Positions 1,124 through 12,159 of a stretch of 27,935 nucleotides of DNA are shown piece by piece. The stretch's first letter is position 1; each line of letters opens with the position of its first letter. Below the pieces are notes generated by a model that was not told the DNA's origin, searched no databases, and was given only the letters and a program-made list of their open reading frames with translations. The translations under genes and the position numbers were made by a program. Where the stretch lies: the UHGV virus genome UHGV-0119398; one strand, 5' to 3'. The DNA is from a virus.

Positions 1124-1462
1124 TTAATTACAAAGGGCTGTAGCGGCATCAATCACCGGTGAAATTGAAATTTTAACGCCGTCATACTCAGGGTCATCCT
1201 TCCATACGTCATCTAAGTTAGACCCCTCCAGCTTTCCTGATTTAACAGCATCTACCGCCATGCCATTCAGAGGATATCTATCATCAGTTTTGATGTCATA
1301 CACAAAAGCATAAGCACGGTTAACACATGATACTTTTGCCTTTTCAAAGGTTAGAGGCCACTTGTCACCATATGCAGCGCCGTCTATCTCTTTAAACTTC
1401 TCAGCGGCTATGGCTGAGGAAGAAAGTGCAATGCAGACTATCGCAAATATAAACTTTTTCAT
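1124..1462 (-). CDS. Small secreted protein of unknown function (candidate lysogenic-conversion moron)
   Basis: 112 aa; N-terminal Sec-type signal peptide MKKFIFAIVCIALSSSAIA/AEK; AAGGAG Shine-Dalgarno 7 nt upstream that overlaps the repressor stop codon; 24 nt upstream of int start on the same strand; AT-rich. Confidence 0.65.
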   Translation of the reverse strand: MKKFIFAIVCIALSSSAIAAEKFKEIDGAAYGDKWPLTFEKAKVSCVNRAYAFVYDIKTDDRYPLNGMAVDAVKSGKLEGSNLDDVWKDDPEYDGVKISISPVIDAATALCN

Positions 1463-1471
1463 TACTGCTCC

Positions 1472-2317
1472 TTAAACATGCTTTTCCAAAGTAAAAATAA
1501 CCGCACCTGATGGTGTGATATCTGAAATATTACATTCAAACTCAGCAGACTTATTTGATAACCTGACCTTTCCGCCTGGCAACCTGATTACGTCAAAAAC
1601 ATCGAGTGCGCCATCAATACCAATAAGCCAGCGACCATTTCCTATCTTCGAGTTAGAACTATCAACAAGCCAAGATGTGCTCACACCATCAATAAACACT
1701 AAATCATCAGTATTTGATGGAACCATAGATATATCAGGAGTCCAGCGTCCGATATCTTTGAGTTCGCCCGCCTCGAGGCGGCACTTTCTAATCGTTAAAG
1801 CATTTGCCGGTTCACCATCATTACTGTTACGCATCTGGCCTTTTCCGGTTGATAACCATTCTAACGATACGCCAGTATCAAGGGCGCAAGTGACAACCAC
1901 GTCACCGGGGAAAAAATCGCGTCTAACCCAAGTGCTTATAGTGCCGGAAGATATACCTAATAAATCTCCAAGCTCTTTTTGCAGAGTAAAACCATACGCA
2001 TCGAGAATCCGACGCAGAACCGCCCTCCCTCCATTTGCCATGATTTCATCATAGAGTTGCTTACCTTTAAGCTTAGTTTTCACCACTTCAGATCTTGCAT
2101 TTGCAAGCTCACCATTAATTAGCCATCGCAGGTCAGCTCCAGTATCAAGAGCACACTCAACGAAAACGTTGCTAGGGATTACGTTTCTAGCAAGCCAGCT
2201 ACTCACGTTGTTTGCATGTATGCCAAGCCTTTCGGCTAGTTCCTTTTGCTGCTTAAAGCCGTATGCAGAAAGGACACGTTCCAATGCGGCAGACGCATTA
2301 ACATCATTTTTAGACAT
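1472..2317 (-). CDS. Immunity repressor candidate with two tandem CI-type HTH domains and a C-terminal oligomerisation/S24-like domain
   Basis: Start set at ATG 2315-2317 (MSKNDV...), not the ORF-track start at 2506. Two internal ~60-aa repeats (LERVLSAYGFKQQKELAERLGI...CALDTGADLRWL and LRRILDAYGFTLQKELGDLLGI...CALDTGVSLEWL) resemble the 186-CI-type HTH domain; sits where the repressor sits in P2/186, divergent from the early operon. Confidence 0.8.
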   Translation of the reverse strand: MSKNDVNASAALERVLSAYGFKQQKELAERLGIHANNVSSWLARNVIPSNVFVECALDTGADLRWLINGELANARSEVVKTKLKGKQLYDEIMANGGRAVLRRILDAYGFTLQKELGDLLGISSGTISTWVRRDFFPGDVVVTCALDTGVSLEWLSTGKGQMRNSNDGEPANALTIRKCRLEAGELKDIGRWTPDISMVPSNTDDLVFIDGVSTSWLVDSSNSKIGNGRWLIGIDGALDVFDVIRLPGGKVRLSNKSAEFECNISDITPSGAVIFTLEKHV

Positions 2318-2338
2318 ATGACACCAACAAGAATTTTG

Positions 2339-2367
2339 TTTACAACCAAAATTTAGCGATCTATATT
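2339..2367 (+). promoter_or_regulatory. Candidate early lytic promoter (pR/Pe-like): -35 TTTACA, 17-bp spacer, -10 TATATT
   Basis: Hexamers at 2339-2344 and 2362-2367 in the 113-bp gap between repressor start and the Apl-like ORF, oriented toward the early operon. Confidence 0.4.
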
Positions 2368-2430
2368 GGTGCTCATCGACCAAGATGCACACCACTGCAC
2401 TACATTTCAAACAACAGGAGATAATGCGAT

Positions 2431-2802
2431 ATGTCAGATGCAAAATCAATCTCGACGCACGACTCGCAAAACTCACAAAATCAAACTGTGCTGCTAGATC
2501 CAACACAGTTTGATGCCATCGTTACCGCCATGCTGCCAGCTCTACAGACAATGATTCGCTCCGCTATGTCAGACACGATGACTGTGAAAGACTTCGCCGC
2601 TACTCGCGGTGTTAGCGAGCGTCTGGTCTGGCAATGGCTCGATGAGGGAGTCCTTCTCAAAGCTCCGACCAAAGACTTTTCCAACAAAGAGGAAGCCGGT
2701 AAACGAAGCCGCACCCTCGTAAACGTAAAAGCATGGCGCGACAAACTGACTCAACAAGCGATCGATTGTCGCTACATCGACCAGCGCACCGCTCTTAACT
2801 GA
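2431..2802 (+). CDS. Apl/Cox-like small HTH regulator/excisionase candidate (N-terminally extended)
   Basis: First gene of the rightward early operon, directly before cII; HTH-like segment TVKDFAATRGVSERLVWQWLDEG; AGGAG SD 9 nt before ATG 2431. True start could be an internal Met (2551 or 2578). Confidence 0.55.
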   Translation: MSDAKSISTHDSQNSQNQTVLLDPTQFDAIVTAMLPALQTMIRSAMSDTMTVKDFAATRGVSERLVWQWLDEGVLLKAPTKDFSNKEEAGKRSRTLVNVKAWRDKLTQQAIDCRYIDQRTALN

Positions 2803-3552: not shown

Positions 3553-3854
3553 AGGCTGGCGAGCGTCTGGCTGGTCTCAATCACATAGCTGAATTACGCG
3601 CGAGATATTGGGGTGATAGCTGGAAAGAGGTTGAGCGCTTTGTCGATGATATGCGCGATAAACGCGATCCACAATTTGAAGAAAATACTCGGGCGCTGGC
3701 CGCTATTTTCTTTCTGGCAAAAATACCGGCGGCTCGTCATGAGCTCGAATTAAGTGAGCTGACTACTGACGAGAAAAAAGCATTGATTACAGCAATGAAT
3801 CATTTTCGTGCAGTGGTGAGCTTATTTCCAAAACGGCTAACCATGCCGAATTAA
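3516..3854 (+). CDS. Hypothetical early protein
   Basis: 112 aa; GGGGA SD before ATG 3516; overlaps the end of the preceding small ORF in another frame; early-operon position. Confidence 0.6.
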   Translation: MAIEAVSANVPLKAGERLAGLNHIAELRARYWGDSWKEVERFVDDMRDKRDPQFEENTRALAAIFFLAKIPAARHELELSELTTDEKKALITAMNHFRAVVSLFPKRLTMPN

Positions 3855-3921
3855 TCCAAACAGAAATTTAATGGCGTAAACCCGCCGGGCTTCTTATTGC
3901 CCGAAATCAGGAGAGTAAATT

Positions 3922-6594: not shown

Positions 6595-6668
6595 TTCATA
6601 TCCATATCATGCACATACAGCAATCGCTCTATTCGTTTTTTTTCTTCCCATCTTTTGCCAATACGTGC

Positions 6669-6688
6669 TACTGTATAAATATACAGTA
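6669..6688 (+). promoter_or_regulatory. LexA (SOS) box TACTGTATAAATATACAGTA overlapping a promoter (-35 TTGCCA at 6655-6660)
   Basis: 19 of 20 match to the E. coli LexA consensus TACTGTATATATATACAGTA; sits about 20 nt upstream of the ORF at 6708, the architecture of the 186 tum promoter. Confidence 0.75.
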
Positions 6689-6707
6689 ACCCTGTGGGAG
6701 GGATTTC

Positions 6708-6890
6708 ATGGTTGGCGAACATTTCAGCCGAACGCAGCAAAAGTGGGCTTGTGTGCAATTTATTGCCGAGGTATCTCTGATTGCAAACTGCAAGCCATCA
6801 GACTTAAAGCTCGCGCTCACTCTCATTGCAGACCTAGCAAACAGCGAAAATAACGAAACCGAAGATGATAATTTTTATAAGGCTGATTAG
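6708..6890 (+). CDS. SOS-controlled small protein, possibly the N-terminal portion of a Tum-like antirepressor
   Basis: 60 aa; GGGAGGG SD; directly downstream of the LexA box; ends in TAG, in frame with the DinI-like ORF that follows one codon later. Confidence 0.55.
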   Translation: MVGEHFSRTQQKWACVQFIAEVSLIANCKPSDLKLALTLIADLANSENNETEDDNFYKAD

Positions 6891-6893
6891 ATT

Positions 6894-7127
6894 ATGAGAA
6901 TCAATATCACGTTGGATAAAGAGCAAAAAATTAGTCAGGCAACGTTGGATGCGCTTGAGGCTGAGCTGTACCGCAATCTGCAACCTATTTACCCAAAGAC
7001 CGCTATCCGCATTCGCAAGGGCTCCGCAAATGGCGTTGAGCTAAGCGGTTTGAAACTGGACGAAGATAAAAAACGAGTAATGGAAATCATGCAGCAGGTA
7101 TGGGAGGACGATAGCTGGTTGCATTAA
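6894..7127 (+). CDS. DinI-family protein (Tum C-terminal domain-like)
   Basis: 77 aa; MRINITLDKEQKISQATLDALEAEL...KKRVMEIMQQVWEDDSW aligns with E. coli DinI as I recall it. Confidence 0.8.
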   Translation: MRINITLDKEQKISQATLDALEAELYRNLQPIYPKTAIRIRKGSANGVELSGLKLDEDKKRVMEIMQQVWEDDSWLH

Positions 7128-7223
7128 CAAACGCCGCCGGTGCTGAAACTCGCTTTCAGTGCTGGCGGGGTTGAACAACGAGCCCCGCGAGGCGTTAGCC
7201 TGCCCCTTAGAGACTGCCCCCAA

Positions 7224-7249
7224 CCGGCACGATTAAAGCCGGTTTTTTT
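7224..7249 (+). terminator. Candidate rho-independent terminator ending the SOS operon
   Basis: CCGGC-loop-GCCGG followed by a T7 run; weak 5-bp stem. A larger hairpin without a U-tract lies at 7134-7168. Confidence 0.4.
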
Positions 7250-7409
7250 ATGCCATTTTTCCGCGATTTCTCCGCTTTTTAGCCGTGCATGCAACAGGTG
7301 CATGGTTTTGCATGCGTCGTGGTTGCCAGTTCTGGCCGTGCGCCGTCAGTGCTGGCGCGGATCAAGAGTGGTCATGCAACTGCATTAAAACCGACCCATA
7401 AAGCGGGCA

Positions 7410-7428
7410 GGCGTGGCGGGGAAAGCAT
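7410..7428 (+). other. cos cohesive-end sequence (19 nt) GGCGTGGCGGGGAAAGCAT
   Basis: Matches my recollection of the P2/186 cohesive end (P2: GGCGAGGCGGGGAAAGCAC); lies between the early/SOS region and the distal end of portal gene Q, the expected place and orientation. Confidence 0.6.
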
Positions 7429-7570
7429 TGCGCGCCAGCGGTGGTGCGTAATATTAAAAATTATCGTCTGAGCGCGTCGTGATGGCGCTGTCGTGATTGT
7501 TGTCGGTTCGTTGGTGGTCTGGTGTGGACGTGCTCGCGTGGCGCGTCTGAGGCGTGATGGTGGCGGGGTA

Positions 7571-7595
7571 TGAAAAAGCCGCCATGCTGGCGGCT
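7571..7595 (-). terminator. Rho-independent terminator of the Q-P late operon
   Basis: On the minus strand, AGCCGCC-AGCAT-GGCGGCT followed by TTTTT, 10 nt downstream of the Q stop. Confidence 0.55.
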
Positions 7596-7604
7596 TGAGG
7601 GGGA

Positions 7605-8627
7605 TTATTCCGGGTTGTCGAGGGTGTACTCTTTGAACCTGATGACCTCCATGCCGAGCCAGTCGTTTACCTCCCTGAACCTGTCCTGCAGGGGTGACAG
7701 CTCGTTACGTACAAAGACCTTTGCCACTTTCTCAACGTCACCGAGTGAGCCGATATTCTCGGGCTTGCCGCCCATGAGCTGGAACGGAACGCGGTGCGCG
7801 TCCATCAGGTCGGCGGCACTGGCTTTCTTGATGTTGAAAAAGTCATCCTTTGTGGCGACCTCGCTCAGTGGCACGATTTTGATGCCGTCAGGTTTTCCGC
7901 CGGGAGCGTAGAAAAACAGGTTCTTAAAGTTGCCGAGCCCTTTTGAGTTGCGCATCGCCTCGCGCAGCGATTCGACGTCGGTCGCGCTCTGCGCCGGGTC
8001 GGTCACATACATGATGTAACCCGCGTGCGCGCCGTTCTGGTAATACTTGCGGCGGAACAGCGTCGCGGATTCATTCAGCCAGGCGGAATTAAGCGCGCTG
8101 AGATATTCGGGCAGGCCATAAATCTCCTGATTAATGTCGGGCTCCAGCAGGTGAAACACGGTGTCAGGTGCGAACTCATGCGGTAGAGTGAAGTTTTCCA
8201 CAAACCAGAAAATCGAATCGTCGACCCCGCGCCGGGTGTATTTGGCCGGTGAGGCCAGCAGCTTGATTAACTGCCCGGTGACGCTGTGGCGCTGCTCAAG
8301 AAAGGCGTTGCCGAATACCAGATAGTCGAGCGCAAAGCGGCTGAAATCCTGACGGGACAGCAACGGGTGCGGAATGTAGGTGCTCGCGAGCACGTTGCGC
8401 TTAACGTAAATCGGTGAGCTGTGATGTACAGCAGAGCGCAGGCTCTTTGCCAGCCCGGAGAAGCTGACCGGCGGCTCGTACCATTTGCCGTTACTGATGC
8501 ACTCGACGTAATCCAGAATGTCACGCTTATCGAGTACCGGCACCGGCTCGCCGAAGGTGAACGCCTCCATTTTTTGCGGGGCGCTGGCGGTCGTGGCGAC
8601 TGTTTTGCGTGGCTTGCGCTTGCTCAT
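7605..8627 (-). CDS. Q: Portal protein (gpQ)
   Basis: 340 aa; EAFTFGEPVPVLDKRDILDYVEC...WYEPPVSF...GLAKSLRSAVHHSSP block as in P2 Q; start overlaps the upstream gene's stop (ATGA). Confidence 0.92.
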   Translation of the reverse strand: MSKRKPRKTVATTASAPQKMEAFTFGEPVPVLDKRDILDYVECISNGKWYEPPVSFSGLAKSLRSAVHHSSPIYVKRNVLASTYIPHPLLSRQDFSRFALDYLVFGNAFLEQRHSVTGQLIKLLASPAKYTRRGVDDSIFWFVENFTLPHEFAPDTVFHLLEPDINQEIYGLPEYLSALNSAWLNESATLFRRKYYQNGAHAGYIMYVTDPAQSATDVESLREAMRNSKGLGNFKNLFFYAPGGKPDGIKIVPLSEVATKDDFFNIKKASAADLMDAHRVPFQLMGGKPENIGSLGDVEKVAKVFVRNELSPLQDRFREVNDWLGMEVIRFKEYTLDNPE

Positions 8628-9370
8628 GCTGCCACCTCGCCCGCTGCAACAGCGAAAGACCAGTCGCAGCCAAAAAGCAGACGATAATCATCGTCGCTGT
8701 ATTCGCGTTTAATTTCCTCAGGCGCAAAGAGATTGCACCCGTTCTGGCATGCTGCATCCAGAGTGACCGACTGACGCCAGACACCATCCGTGCAAAATAC
8801 GCTGTCGCCGGTATTGATTAGCGGTGACGGTCGGTGATTGCGGAACGTGCCATTCCATACCCGGAAAGCGTCATGATTATCAGAGGGAGAGGTGAACATC
8901 TTCAGGCTGTGGCGCTTATGACAGGTGATACCCGCCGCGACTTTTGCCGCATTTCGCGGGTTACTGAACCACCCGAACTCATCAAGGTAGACGTTACCCG
9001 CCAGTGCGGCGCAATGGGATTCCTCGCCGACAAAGCTGATAACCGCCCCGTCGTCGAGCTGCAGGCTGTGGCCGTTGCTCGTCAGGCGGACACCGACGCG
9101 CGCTGAAAGGTTATTCATGTACATCAGCGCCACGCGCGCATGCTCAACGGTGTGAGCAAACCAGACCTGATTATCGCCCGTTGTCAGCGCATCGAGCAGC
9201 GCCTCGCGACTAAAGAGCTGCGTTGCGCCAATCTGGCGCGATTTGGTGATGCTGCGGTCGATATTGAGTTTCCCGACACGCAACCATGTTGCCTGATAGT
9301 CAAAGCTGTCATTGTGCAGAATATCGGCCATTGCCTGAATCTGGCTTTGTGAGAAAACGTTATTTTTCAT
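8624..9370 (-). CDS. Terminase large-subunit ATPase-domain paralogue (ATPase-only, no HTH or nuclease region)
   Basis: 248 aa; homologous to the ATPase core of the adjacent gpP (shared KSRQIGAT, Walker-B-like VYLDEFGW, GVWRQSVTLDAA, LFAPEEIKREYSDDDYRLLFGCDW); translationally coupled to P upstream and Q downstream. Confidence 0.8.
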   Translation of the reverse strand: MKNNVFSQSQIQAMADILHNDSFDYQATWLRVGKLNIDRSITKSRQIGATQLFSREALLDALTTGDNQVWFAHTVEHARVALMYMNNLSARVGVRLTSNGHSLQLDDGAVISFVGEESHCAALAGNVYLDEFGWFSNPRNAAKVAAGITCHKRHSLKMFTSPSDNHDAFRVWNGTFRNHRPSPLINTGDSVFCTDGVWRQSVTLDAACQNGCNLFAPEEIKREYSDDDYRLLFGCDWSFAVAAGEVAA

Positions 9371-11139
9371 TAATTAAACTCCAGAATAGATTTAGGCTGC
9401 ATGCCGCTACCGGCGGAAAGCGGTTCGTTTAACAGGGCGTGCATGGTCGCCCATGCGATATCGGCGTGACTGGCTTCCTCGGTGCGGCTGGCCTCGTAGG
9501 TGGCGCTGCGCCCACTGCTGGTCATGGTTTTGCGGATGGACATAAACGACTGCGTGACGTCTGTTGCCCCGGCGTCGTACTCCAGACAGCCCCGTCGAAT
9601 GGTGTCTTTTGCCTTGAGCACCATCGCGGTTTTCATTTCGGGCGTGTAACGGATGCCGCGTGCCGCCGGGTAGAATGAGCGCACCAACTGGAATACGCCG
9701 AGGCCGAGGCCGGTTGCGTCAATGCCGATGTATTCGACGTTGTATTTCTCGGTCAGTTTGCGAATGCCCTCGGCCTGAGCGGCAAAGTCCATGCCTTTCC
9801 ACTGGTGGCGCTCCAGCATACGGAACTTGCCACCCGAGACCACCGGCGGCGCGAGCACGACGCACCCGGCACTGTCGCCGGTGTGTGACGGGTCGTAGCC
9901 AATCCAGACAGGCCGCGAGCCGAACGGATGGTCGGCGAAAGGGGCAAAATCCTCCCATTCTTCCATCACGTCGACCATGCAGCGCTGTAGCTCCTCGAAC
10001 GGGAATACCGACGCTTTATCGTCGACAAACTCGCACATAAACAGGTTCTTAAAGTCCTCATCACTGTTTTCGCGTTTGAGCTGGTCGAGGTCGAACAGGG
10101 TGCAGCCACCGGTAAGGGCGTCCTCAATAGTGACAATCTGCCGCCACTGGCCATCGTCGCAGAGCTGACCACCGGCGAGCGCGCTGTGGCTGATGTCGAT
10201 TTCGATGCGGTCGGCAATACGGCTGCGCCCCTTGTTGAACAGCTCGCCAGACCAGAAGGGGTAAGCGCCGTGCGCCAGTGTTGATGGTGTCGAAAAGTAG
10301 GTCGAGCGCAGGTGCTTTTGCGAGGCCATGCCCGACGCGACTTTGCGCAGCTTCTGAAAATTCGGGATCCAGAATATTTCATCGACATACAGGTCGCCGT
10401 TATGGCTCTGCGCGGTGTTGGAATTGGTACCGAGAAAAATCAGCTTTGCGCCGTTGTTGCCGATGACAATCGGGTCACCGGTCAGGTCGACGTCGACCAG
10501 TCGCGCAAACTGGATGATGTATTCACGGAACACGTAAGCCTGCGTTTTACTGGCCGACAGAAATATCTGGTTGTGGCCGGTCTTGAGCGCGCGCAGCAGC
10601 GCCTCGCGGGAGAAATAGAACGTCGCGCCAATCTGACGGGATTTGAGAATGTCGCGAATACGGTGCGCCAGTCCTGCGCGGTACCACTGCAACTGGTACT
10701 CGAAAGACTGTTCGAAAAATAGTTCCTCCAGTTTTTCGATAGCCTCGTCGCTGAAAAAGTTCTTTTTCGGCTTCTTACGCTCGCCCTTGTTGCGGTTGGC
10801 GACATTGGGGTTAAGGTCGACCTCGTTACCGGTCTGACTGTAGCGGTTAACGCGCGCCAGTCGCTCAATCTGCCGCCCGAGCAGGTCAATCTCTTTGAAG
10901 TCGCCCCCTGACTTTTGCGGCTTGGCGATGAGCTGAATCAGGCGCGCCTCAAGGCTGCTTTCAACGCGGGAAATGGGTGCGATGCCGTCCCAGCCGTCGC
11001 GCTGCTTCCAGCTCTGCACGGTCGGGCGCTTGACCTGCAGCATGTCGGCAATCTGTGGCACGGAAAAGCCCTGCCAGTAAAGCAGCGATGCCTGCCGTCG
11101 CGGGTCATGCAACAAGGTTGTATCGGTGGAAATGGTCAT
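9370..11139 (-). CDS. P: Terminase large subunit (gpP)
   Basis: 589 aa; N-terminal HTH (LLYWQGFSVPQIADMLQVKRPTVQSWKQR), ATPase motifs KSRQIGAT and LYVDEIFW, C-terminal nuclease half; length matches P2 gpP. Confidence 0.92.
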   Translation of the reverse strand: MTISTDTTLLHDPRRQASLLYWQGFSVPQIADMLQVKRPTVQSWKQRDGWDGIAPISRVESSLEARLIQLIAKPQKSGGDFKEIDLLGRQIERLARVNRYSQTGNEVDLNPNVANRNKGERKKPKKNFFSDEAIEKLEELFFEQSFEYQLQWYRAGLAHRIRDILKSRQIGATFYFSREALLRALKTGHNQIFLSASKTQAYVFREYIIQFARLVDVDLTGDPIVIGNNGAKLIFLGTNSNTAQSHNGDLYVDEIFWIPNFQKLRKVASGMASQKHLRSTYFSTPSTLAHGAYPFWSGELFNKGRSRIADRIEIDISHSALAGGQLCDDGQWRQIVTIEDALTGGCTLFDLDQLKRENSDEDFKNLFMCEFVDDKASVFPFEELQRCMVDVMEEWEDFAPFADHPFGSRPVWIGYDPSHTGDSAGCVVLAPPVVSGGKFRMLERHQWKGMDFAAQAEGIRKLTEKYNVEYIGIDATGLGLGVFQLVRSFYPAARGIRYTPEMKTAMVLKAKDTIRRGCLEYDAGATDVTQSFMSIRKTMTSSGRSATYEASRTEEASHADIAWATMHALLNEPLSAGSGMQPKSILEFN

Positions 11140-11304
11140 TGATGCCTCGCCGTAGTGGATTCAGGGCAAGGCTACTTAATGGCCGTCAGTGATTCGCTAA
11201 GGTGCTGTTGTGTGGGCGGTTGTCCAGTCGTCATTGGTGGTCTGGTGTGTCCTGAGTCTGGAAACTGGCGGTGACCAGTAACCCCAACCTCAGGACTCCT
11301 GACA

Positions 11305-12159
11305 ATGGCAAAAAAAGTCTCAAAGTTCTTTCGCATCGGCGTCGAGGGTGATACCTGCGACGGGCGCATTATCAGCGCCAGCGATATTCAGGAAATGGCC
11401 GAAACCTACGACCCGCGCGTCTACGGTTGCCGTATCAACCTTGAACACCTGCGCGGCCTGCTGCCTGATGGCGTATTCAAGCGTTATGGCGATGTGGTCG
11501 AGCTGAAAGCCGAGAAGATTGACGACGATTCTGCGCTTAACGGCAAATGGGCGTTGTTCGCTAAAATCACCCCGACCGATGACCTTATCGCGATGAATAA
11601 AGCCGCGCAGAAGGTCTACACCTCAATGGAAATTCAGCCGAATTTTGCCAATACCGGCAAATGCTACCTCGTTGGCCTTGCGGTCACCGATGACCCGGCG
11701 AGCCTCGGCACTGAATACCTCGAATTCTGCCGCAACGCGAAGCACAACCCTTTGCAACGCTTTAAGGTCAACCCTGAAAACGTCTTTTCCGCCGCCACGC
11801 TGGCCGAGCTGGAATTTGAAGACGTTCCCGACACGGTGCTCAACAGCCTGGCCGATAAGGTGAAAGCCATTTTCAGTCGTAAGCAGGTCAGCGACGATGC
11901 GCGCCTGAATGATGTGCATGAGGCGGTGACCACCGTCAGCGAGCATGTGCAGACCAACCTGACCAAACAGGAGGAGCGCATTTCCGGTATGGAAGCCGCG
12001 TTTGCCTCTTTCAAACAGGAAGTGACCGGCAAAGTTGAAGAAACCAGCCAGGCATTTTCTGCCCTGAAAACCACCCTCGACAAAACAGAAAGTTTCAGCC
12101 AGCCGCGACGCACGAAAGCCAGTGGCGGTGGCAGCGATGAGCTGCTGACCGACTGCTGA
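11305..12159 (+). CDS. O: Capsid scaffolding protein (gpO)
   Basis: 284 aa; MAKKVSKFFRIGVEGDTCDGRIISASDIQEMAETYDPRVYGCRINLEHLRG is near-identical to P2 gpO as I recall it. Confidence 0.92.
   Translation: MAKKVSKFFRIGVEGDTCDGRIISASDIQEMAETYDPRVYGCRINLEHLRGLLPDGVFKRYGDVVELKAEKIDDDSALNGKWALFAKITPTDDLIAMNKAAQKVYTSMEIQPNFANTGKCYLVGLAVTDDPASLGTEYLEFCRNAKHNPLQRFKVNPENVFSAATLAELEFEDVPDTVLNSLADKVKAIFSRKQVSDDARLNDVHEAVTTVSEHVQTNLTKQEERISGMEAAFASFKQEVTGKVEETSQAFSALKTTLDKTESFSQPRRTKASGGGSDELLTDC

Follow-up and report, generated by a model that had tools for sequence, protein, structure and literature searches.

The W protein of a 186-type prophage, an ATPase-domain-only paralogue of the large terminase encoded between terminase and portal

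The stretch of DNA analysed here, called the window throughout, is the 27,935-nucleotide virus genome UHGV-0119398 of the UHGV collection, and the gene under study, W, lies in its packaging operon between the genes for the large terminase and the portal protein. W is almost certainly the orthologue of the 'W protein' of coliphage 186 and of gp2 of phage PSP3, i.e., the middle gene of a B-activated late operon that runs from the promoter p12 through terminase, W and portal to the terminator tW. It is a known gene, annotated for decades in the reference records of 186 and PSP3 and routinely by pipelines. The original prediction, made from the sequence of the window, had taken it for an undescribed insertion; this cannot be maintained, as 186 (U32222) and PSP3 both have W annotated between terminase and portal. 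What is established for W is its gene structure, homology, fold, operon context, purifying selection and patchy distribution. The role proposed for it, that of an accessory protein that binds nucleotides and acts as a partner or modulator of the packaging motor, is put forward tentatively, with a chance that we place a little below even.

Identity of W and structure of its operon

When phage genomes were searched with tblastn, W matched the W protein of coliphage 186 at 93.7% identity over 96% of the query (E 8e-152), and further matches were obtained in PSP3 (89.5%) and in EtG, Midge, SI22, SW9 and BIS20 (90-92%). The full-length alignment with 186 W (AAC34147.1) gives 94.0% identity, the difference between both proteins being allelic only (15 substitutions). 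The flanking genes are closer still, with 98.6% amino acid (aa) identity between the terminase and 186 Orf12 and 98.5% between the portal protein and 186 Orf2. Length (248 aa), position and overlaps are the same in 186 W and PSP3 gp2, which belong to the same late operon; p12, the B site, tW and cos are likewise conserved. Most of the window aligns at 87-94% identity with Midge, EtG, PSP3 and relatives, and the window is a 186-type (Eganvirus) prophage.

In the 186 record U32222, the coding sequence (CDS) 1215..1961 (AAC34147.1) carries the label 'W protein; similar to Orf12' and stands between Orf2 ('capsid portal protein; P2 Q homolog') and Orf12 ('terminase subunit; P2 P homolog'). The PSP3 protein gp2 (AAN08364.1), encoded in the same slot, is labelled 'similar to 186 W; similar to orf3'. 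In the records of EtG, Midge, SI22 and SW9, W is presented as a second subunit of the terminase, the EtG genome note going no further than to call W and P 'two subunits of terminase', and the RefSeq name is 'terminase large subunit domain-containing protein'. The statement of the original prediction that P2 and 186 have Q directly next to P is right for P2, where Q abuts P, but wrong for 186, where W lies between. W turned out, for the most part, to be a routine and already annotated component of these operons, while its similarity to the terminase survived formal alignment.

The open reading frame (ORF) of W extends from an ATG to a TGA and, as had been read from the start and stop overlaps, is translationally coupled at both ends. 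At the junction TAATG between terminase and W (9368-9372), the stop TAA (9372-9370) and the start ATG (9370-9368) have 1 nt in common, and at the junction ATGA between W and portal (8627-8624), the TGA of W (8626-8624) and the ATG of the portal gene (8627-8625) form a 4-nt overlap. GGAG is found upstream of the W start at 9382-9379, and GAGG upstream of the portal start at 8638-8635, within the 3' end of W. The conserved C-terminal tail of W proteins (..A-G-E-V-x-A, window 8631-8660) coincides with this portal ribosome-binding site, and what is conserved there may be the RNA rather than the protein sequence.

BLASTP aligned residues 2-237 of W with residues 125-371 of the adjacent 589-aa terminase, with 92 identities over 248 positions (37%) and an E value of 1e-45, which puts the similarity far beyond chance and agrees with the 35-40% first estimated by eye for the ATPase core. 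The motifs quoted with that estimate were all recovered (KSRQIGAT in both proteins, VYLDEFGW versus LYVDEIFW, and DGVWRQSVT versus DGQWRQIVT). In Pfam, Terminase_6N alone is matched by W (E 1.9e-22), the nuclease domain Terminase_6C giving no match. Compared with the terminase, W lacks the N-terminal Terminase_5/helix-turn-helix (HTH) part and the nuclease half, its end falling opposite residue 371. The absence of both parts had been recognised from the outset, but the N-terminal one had been put at about 150 aa, whereas 124 aa are missing.

Table 1. Coordinates in the window of the genes, motifs and control elements of the terminase-W-portal region
Feature	Position	Strand	Basis
Large terminase, 589 aa; homologue of 186 Orf12 / P2 gpP	9370..11139	-	Pfam Terminase_5/HTH + Terminase_6N + Terminase_6C
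W gene, 248 aa, ATPase-domain-only large-terminase paralogue; orthologue of 186 W / PSP3 gp2	8624..9370	-	ORF, alignment, Pfam, AlphaFold2
Walker A / P-loop codons of W, K43-S-R-Q-I-G-A-T50	9221..9244	-	read from sequence
Walker B codons of W, N126-V-Y-L-D130-E131	8978..8995	-	read from sequence
C-motif (coupling motif) codons of W, T160-S-P-S163	8882..8893	-	aligned to STPS of full-length terminases
Portal protein, 340 aa; homologue of 186 Orf2 / P2 gpQ	7605..8627	-	Pfam Phage_portal, phrog_68
tW, rho-independent terminator closing the terminase-W-portal operon, AAAAAGCCGCCATGCTGGCGGCTT	7573..7596	-	identical to annotated 186 tW 164-187
cos, cohesive-end sequence, GGCGTGGCGGGGAAAGCAT	7410..7428	+	identical over 19 nt to 186 positions 1-19, annotated cos
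p12 promoter, reading leftward into terminase-W-portal	about 11162-11199		186 homology
B-activator binding site	about 11207-11226		186 homology
pV promoter	about 11237-11274		186 homology

The divergent late control region (11162..11274) shows 99% identity to 186 positions 3721-3901, a stretch in which its features are annotated, and its coordinates were carried over from 186 with an offset of +7409. For cos, tW, p12, the B site and pV taken together, identity to 186 is 91-99%. The terminator tW was also placed by homology to 186, a simple terminator scan having failed to pick it up. A promoter scan detected no sigma-70-like promoter within 7100-11400, and the lack of an internal promoter argues against W being a moron. 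Judged from these elements, W is assigned to the late operon that depends on B and extends from p12 to tW.

ATPase motifs, predicted fold and selection

The residues expected of a terminase ATPase are in place in W. Across 35 W and terminase sequences, K43, R45, Q46, I47, G48 and A49 of Walker A as well as Y128 and E131 of Walker B are invariant. In an alignment of 21 sequences (A2), S163, D195, R199, Q200 and the upstream F23/Q26/W29 motif are invariant too; in the wider alignment of 35 sequences (A3), S163 is nearly invariant, as are several other positions that do not vary in A2. Within the W clade, K43, R45, Q46, G48, E131 and the Q-motif are invariant or nearly so, and D130 is retained in the clade formed by 186, Hafnia and Pectobacterium. 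With these residues, the W protein of the window looks like a competent nucleotide-binding domain.

The structure of W was predicted by AlphaFold2 from the 35-sequence alignment with a mean predicted local distance difference test score (pLDDT) of 92.5 and a predicted template-modelling score (pTM) of 0.90. The modelled protein is a complete terminase ATPase domain, and its best PDB matches in Foldseek are the terminase ATPase domains of T4 gp17 (2o0h, E 4e-8), D6E and P74-26. The free-standing ATPase-domain paralogue with intact motifs that had been announced is thereby borne out, since the Walker A, Walker B and C-motif residues are kept and the fold matches. A search of PDB sequences with W detected no solved structure, the NCBIfam models gave no match, and no match was obtained with the PADLOC defence models at E <= 0.1.

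Comparison with known packaging ATPases delimits what W shares with each of them. With the P2-like large terminase (P2 gpP, 186 Orf12), the ATPase domain is 37-38% identical, and the Q-motif, the deviant Walker A KSRQIGAT, the Walker B hhhhDE, the C-motif and the segment DGxWRQxVT are common to both. In contrast to this terminase, W is devoid of the N-terminal 124 aa (HTH/Terminase_5) and of the RNase-H-like nuclease domain, and it ends with a short specific tail, WSxAxxAGEVxA. The likeness to the N-terminal ATPase domain of T4 gp17 (2o0h/2o0j) and to D6E and P74-26 TerL is structural (Foldseek E 4e-8 to 1e-6, query-normalised TM-score 0.59-0.67), whereas sequence identity amounts to 12-16% and these domains are parts of full-length terminases or engineered fragments rather than separately encoded proteins. 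Weaker matches (7jqp, E 3.8e-4; 5hd9, E 8e-4) concern phi29 gp16 and phi28 gp11, which also display a packaging-ATPase fold without a nuclease but act as the sole motor ATPase of phages packaging protein-primed unit-length DNA. Unlike phi29 gp16, W coexists in a cos phage with a complete terminase encoded immediately upstream.

In a large protein database, proteins of the W family have 245-254 aa, range from 95% down to 45% identity and are found in at least eight genera; below them comes a gap and then full-length terminases at 37-38% identity. Among their hosts are Escherichia, Edwardsiella, Enterobacter, Hafnia, Pectobacterium, Symbiopectobacterium and Yersinia, to which the phage search adds Salmonella (PSP3, SI22, SW9, BIS20). 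The enterobacterial W clade is monophyletic in a neighbour-joining tree (bootstrap 98/100). The order terminase-W-portal, with stop and start codons that overlap, occurs in the Yersinia enterocolitica phage vB_YenM_56.17 (genus Duonihilunusvirus), in Pectobacterium and Hafnia prophages, and in four metagenomic P2-like loci. In the Hafnia paralvei prophage (L009 3229-5000), the terminase is split into ORFs of 426 and 159 aa, the W-like gene and the portal gene being intact; in a second locus of Hafnia type (L010), the terminase is whole.

The ratio of nonsynonymous to synonymous substitution rates (dN/dS), calculated for close pairs by the Nei-Gojobori method in the same genomes, is 0.10-0.19 for W, 0.03-0.06 for the terminase and 0-0.06 for the portal protein. 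Between genera, amino acid identity is 44-52% for W, 72-83% for the terminase and 67-78% for the portal protein. W is under clear purifying selection, although 3-5 times less constrained than its neighbours. This bears on the view that W is a relic, i.e., a decaying partial duplicate of the terminase without a function as a protein, kept to deliver ribosomes to the portal start. Such a relic would fit the dispensability of W in close relatives and the degenerate motifs of some distant W-like proteins, both described below, as well as the portal Shine-Dalgarno GAGG encoded by the conserved tail of W. It is nonetheless highly improbable, as the ORF stays intact over the whole range of identities and genera given above, with a dN/dS far under neutrality, invariant catalytic residues in the W clade and a confidently predicted fold. 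Moreover, phages without W couple the portal straight to the terminase stop, so that a spacer gene is not needed.

Distribution and possible role of W

The distribution of W is patchy. The gene was found in 8 of 5,426 complete E. coli genomes, 1,469 of which carry a packaging region of the P2/186 type, and the terminase-W-portal query was fully covered in 10 records of the phage collection. At 78% query coverage, W is absent, with flanks 93-96% identical, from at least 12 Yersinia pestis phages and from RCIP0057, vB_EcoM-613R3, PHB48, SEN1 and FSLSP004. The 186-type phages of Y. pestis were isolated as lytic plaque-formers (PMC11126057). Between loci with and without W, the divergence starts exactly at the stop codon of the terminase and ends about 25 codons into the portal gene, whose start directly follows the terminase stop in the genomes without W. 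W is thus optional and dispensable within the genus, an accessory rather than a core part, since DNA packaging and plaque formation take place in close relatives that do not have it.

W could be the genetically defined essential head gene W of 186, required in the phages that possess it through co-adaptation of terminase and portal. Hocking and Egan reportedly defined W in 1982 by conditional-lethal mutants defective in heads. The product name 'W protein' and the qualifier gene=W of the CDS in U32222 are in line with such an essential function, as are the purifying selection on W and its conserved length across genera. However, the name is ambiguous, and with it the genetic assignment: the GenBank and RefSeq records of 186 (U32222/NC_001317 196-1961) attach gene=W to both the 248-aa CDS and the portal CDS, and in the records of 186-type Yersinia phages without W (PP516624, L012 207-1253), it is the portal that is called 'W gene ... 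P2 Q-like'. Given the translational coupling of the portal gene to W, nonsense mutations in W are likely to be polar on the portal gene, and an amber mutation would by this alone give a head-defective phenotype. In addition, the phages without W and with flanks 93-96% identical differ only in the approximately 25 N-terminal codons of the portal gene. An essential role of W is quite unlikely. The related idea that the portal N-terminus is co-adapted to W was rejected, no W-specific signature being present.

Beyond the enterobacterial clade, proteins resembling W are numerous. When 1.84 billion cluster representatives were searched exhaustively without a profile, 278 matches were returned. For the motif table, the protein-database and cluster-representative matches, together with the window's own W, were filtered locally, which left 60 complete ATPase-only proteins (222-284 aa), and 41 full-length terminases including that of the window. 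All 41 full-length terminases have the DE pair of Walker B, and most have a Walker A of the KSRQIGxT type. The canonical motifs are kept in the W clade of 186, Hafnia and Pectobacterium. In a 'GAD' clade, which groups the Yersinia W proteins and nine other cluster representatives, T50 of Walker A is replaced by D and D130 of Walker B by G, S, A or P in 12 out of 12 cluster representatives (P0028, P0029, P0031, P0044, P0048, P0060, P0061, P0064, P0074, P0077, P0079 and P0109), with E131 present in 11; the W-like gene of vB_YenM_56.17 (L006 4001-4765) is a member. The swap (KxRQxGAD with ..[GSAP]E[YF]AW) occurs in none of the 41 full-length terminases, and it looks like the relocation of an acidic (metal-site) residue that has been maintained over deep divergence.

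In several distant W-like proteins (for example P0088, P0116, P0131, P0167 and P0177), K43 and/or E131 are lost, and two of these proteins were confirmed in the slot between terminase and portal, namely P0167 (L018 1419-2237) and P0116 (L019 2581-3351). The broader class as a whole can therefore not depend on ATP hydrolysis. P0124, P0142 and P0188 are further apparent pseudo-ATPases among the distant ATPase-only proteins. By nearest-neighbour distances, several W-like proteins lie closer to full-length terminases than to the remaining members of the W-like group, and the broader class probably arose more than once. A single origin of all W-like proteins is not claimed: neighbour joining groups 39 of 44 of them, but strong bootstrap is confined to the enterobacterial core clade. 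The W-like proteins of other P2-like elements (gp020 of vB_YenM_56.17 and the Pectobacterium, Hafnia and metagenomic proteins) resemble W in their size (220-285 aa), in the terminase-W-portal order and in the overlapping stops and starts. They differ from it by an identity of 25-54%, by the 'GAD' swap and, for some, by the lack of the Walker-A Lys and/or the catalytic Glu.

In the role tentatively proposed here, that of an accessory partner or modulator of the motor, W would be made together with the full-length terminase and the portal protein, to which it is coupled translationally and in its stoichiometry, and would bind ATP through the nucleotide-binding and catalytic residues it has kept. 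It might then join the packaging motor via ATPase-ATPase ring interfaces with the full-length terminase and/or at the portal vertex, and tune the assembly or activity of the motor without cutting or recognising DNA. The lost N-terminal HTH module presumably contacts the small subunit or DNA. Several observations weigh against such a partnership. The rate at which W evolves is 3-5 times that of terminase and portal, its proposed partners. The existence of plaque-forming relatives without W implies that any contribution of W to packaging is non-essential or context-dependent. No W-linked signature was found in the portal N-termini, which are variable and basic with and without W alike. To these are added the loss of K43 and/or E131 in the distant proteins mentioned above and the outcome of full-text literature searches, in which no paper on a biochemical role of W was found, the original 186 genetics papers lying outside their reach.

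The fast evolution of W, compared with the neighbouring core genes, would also suit a gene engaged in conflict. W could serve as a decoy or sponge for Avs-type STAND immune sensors of the terminase ATPase fold, or as a poison of the motors of rival P2-like phages or satellites, the latter corresponding to the dominant-negative inhibitor of the original prediction. The patchiness of W between near-identical phages and its rarity in E. coli agree with this, as do the loss of catalytic residues in some lineages that keep fold and position, and the several W-like proteins nearer to full-length terminases, which suggest repeated origins. Among the structures matched by the W model is the terminase chain in an Avs3-terminase complex (8dgc_E, E 1.5e-5), a match that shows only that such sensors target the fold. 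Nevertheless, a free ATPase domain could equally trigger a terminase sensor, and W differs from the usual moron or defence cargo in being promoterless and embedded in a coupled late packaging operon. Phage 186, which carries W, serves as a helper for the satellite P4, so that W does not abolish satellite exploitation. Neither the PADLOC search nor the location of W points to defence, the known variable defence hotspot of P2-like phages being situated between gpA and gpQ next to cos and not between P and Q (PMC9122126). A conflict function is on the whole unlikely, and so is its dominant-negative or anti-satellite version, for which no evidence was found and against which there is some.

The same idea can be extended to the broader class. 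ATPase-only paralogues between terminase and portal would then form a widespread, repeatedly evolved and fast-evolving accessory class of P2-like phages, with 186 W as the founding member, dozens of 50%-identity clusters, one Asp-relocated subclade and some pseudo-ATPases, whose real job would be conflict, either blunting terminase-fold sensors or interfering with the motors of rival phages or satellites. Taken as a whole, this extension is rather improbable.

For the role of W as a partner or modulator of the motor, the main interest lies in the combination of features. A terminase ATPase domain that is separately encoded, co-expressed with the full terminase, conserved in Enterobacterales and dispensable in sister phages offers a handle on the assembly and regulation of the motor ring, and the near-identical pairs of phages with and without W are isogenic comparisons that already exist. 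The occurrence of Asp-swapped relatives, and of others that are catalytically dead, suggests that the members of the class are more than an addition to the motor. As a discovery, W carries little weight; the survey brought as by-products the widespread W-like class, its Asp-swapped clade, the pseudo-ATPase members and the natural pairs with and without W.

Neighbouring genes

The junction between P and Q was also considered as a hotspot for variable cargo, since some relatives listed 'hypothetical x4' or SIR2 genes. This was rejected: the extra genes lie in the hotspot between gpA, cos and gpQ, and the portal genes of phages without W abut the terminase. In close E. coli relatives, the gpA-cos-portal interval contains up to four extra genes, one of the SIR2 family. 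The corresponding interval of the window (6595-7604) is almost empty, its content being a DinI-family gene (6894-7127), a 60-aa ORF (6708-6890) and cos.

Two further genes stand apart from the packaging region. A mechanically called ORF of 344 aa (1472-2506, minus strand) contains two separate matches to the HTH of CI repressors and one CI C-terminal domain; the CI protein of 186 has about 190 aa. The CI-like ORF is either over-extended or carries a tandem or duplicated N-terminal HTH. Between the integrase gene (50-1099) and this CI-like repressor lies a DUF2511 gene (1124-1462, minus strand), which may be lysogenic-conversion cargo.

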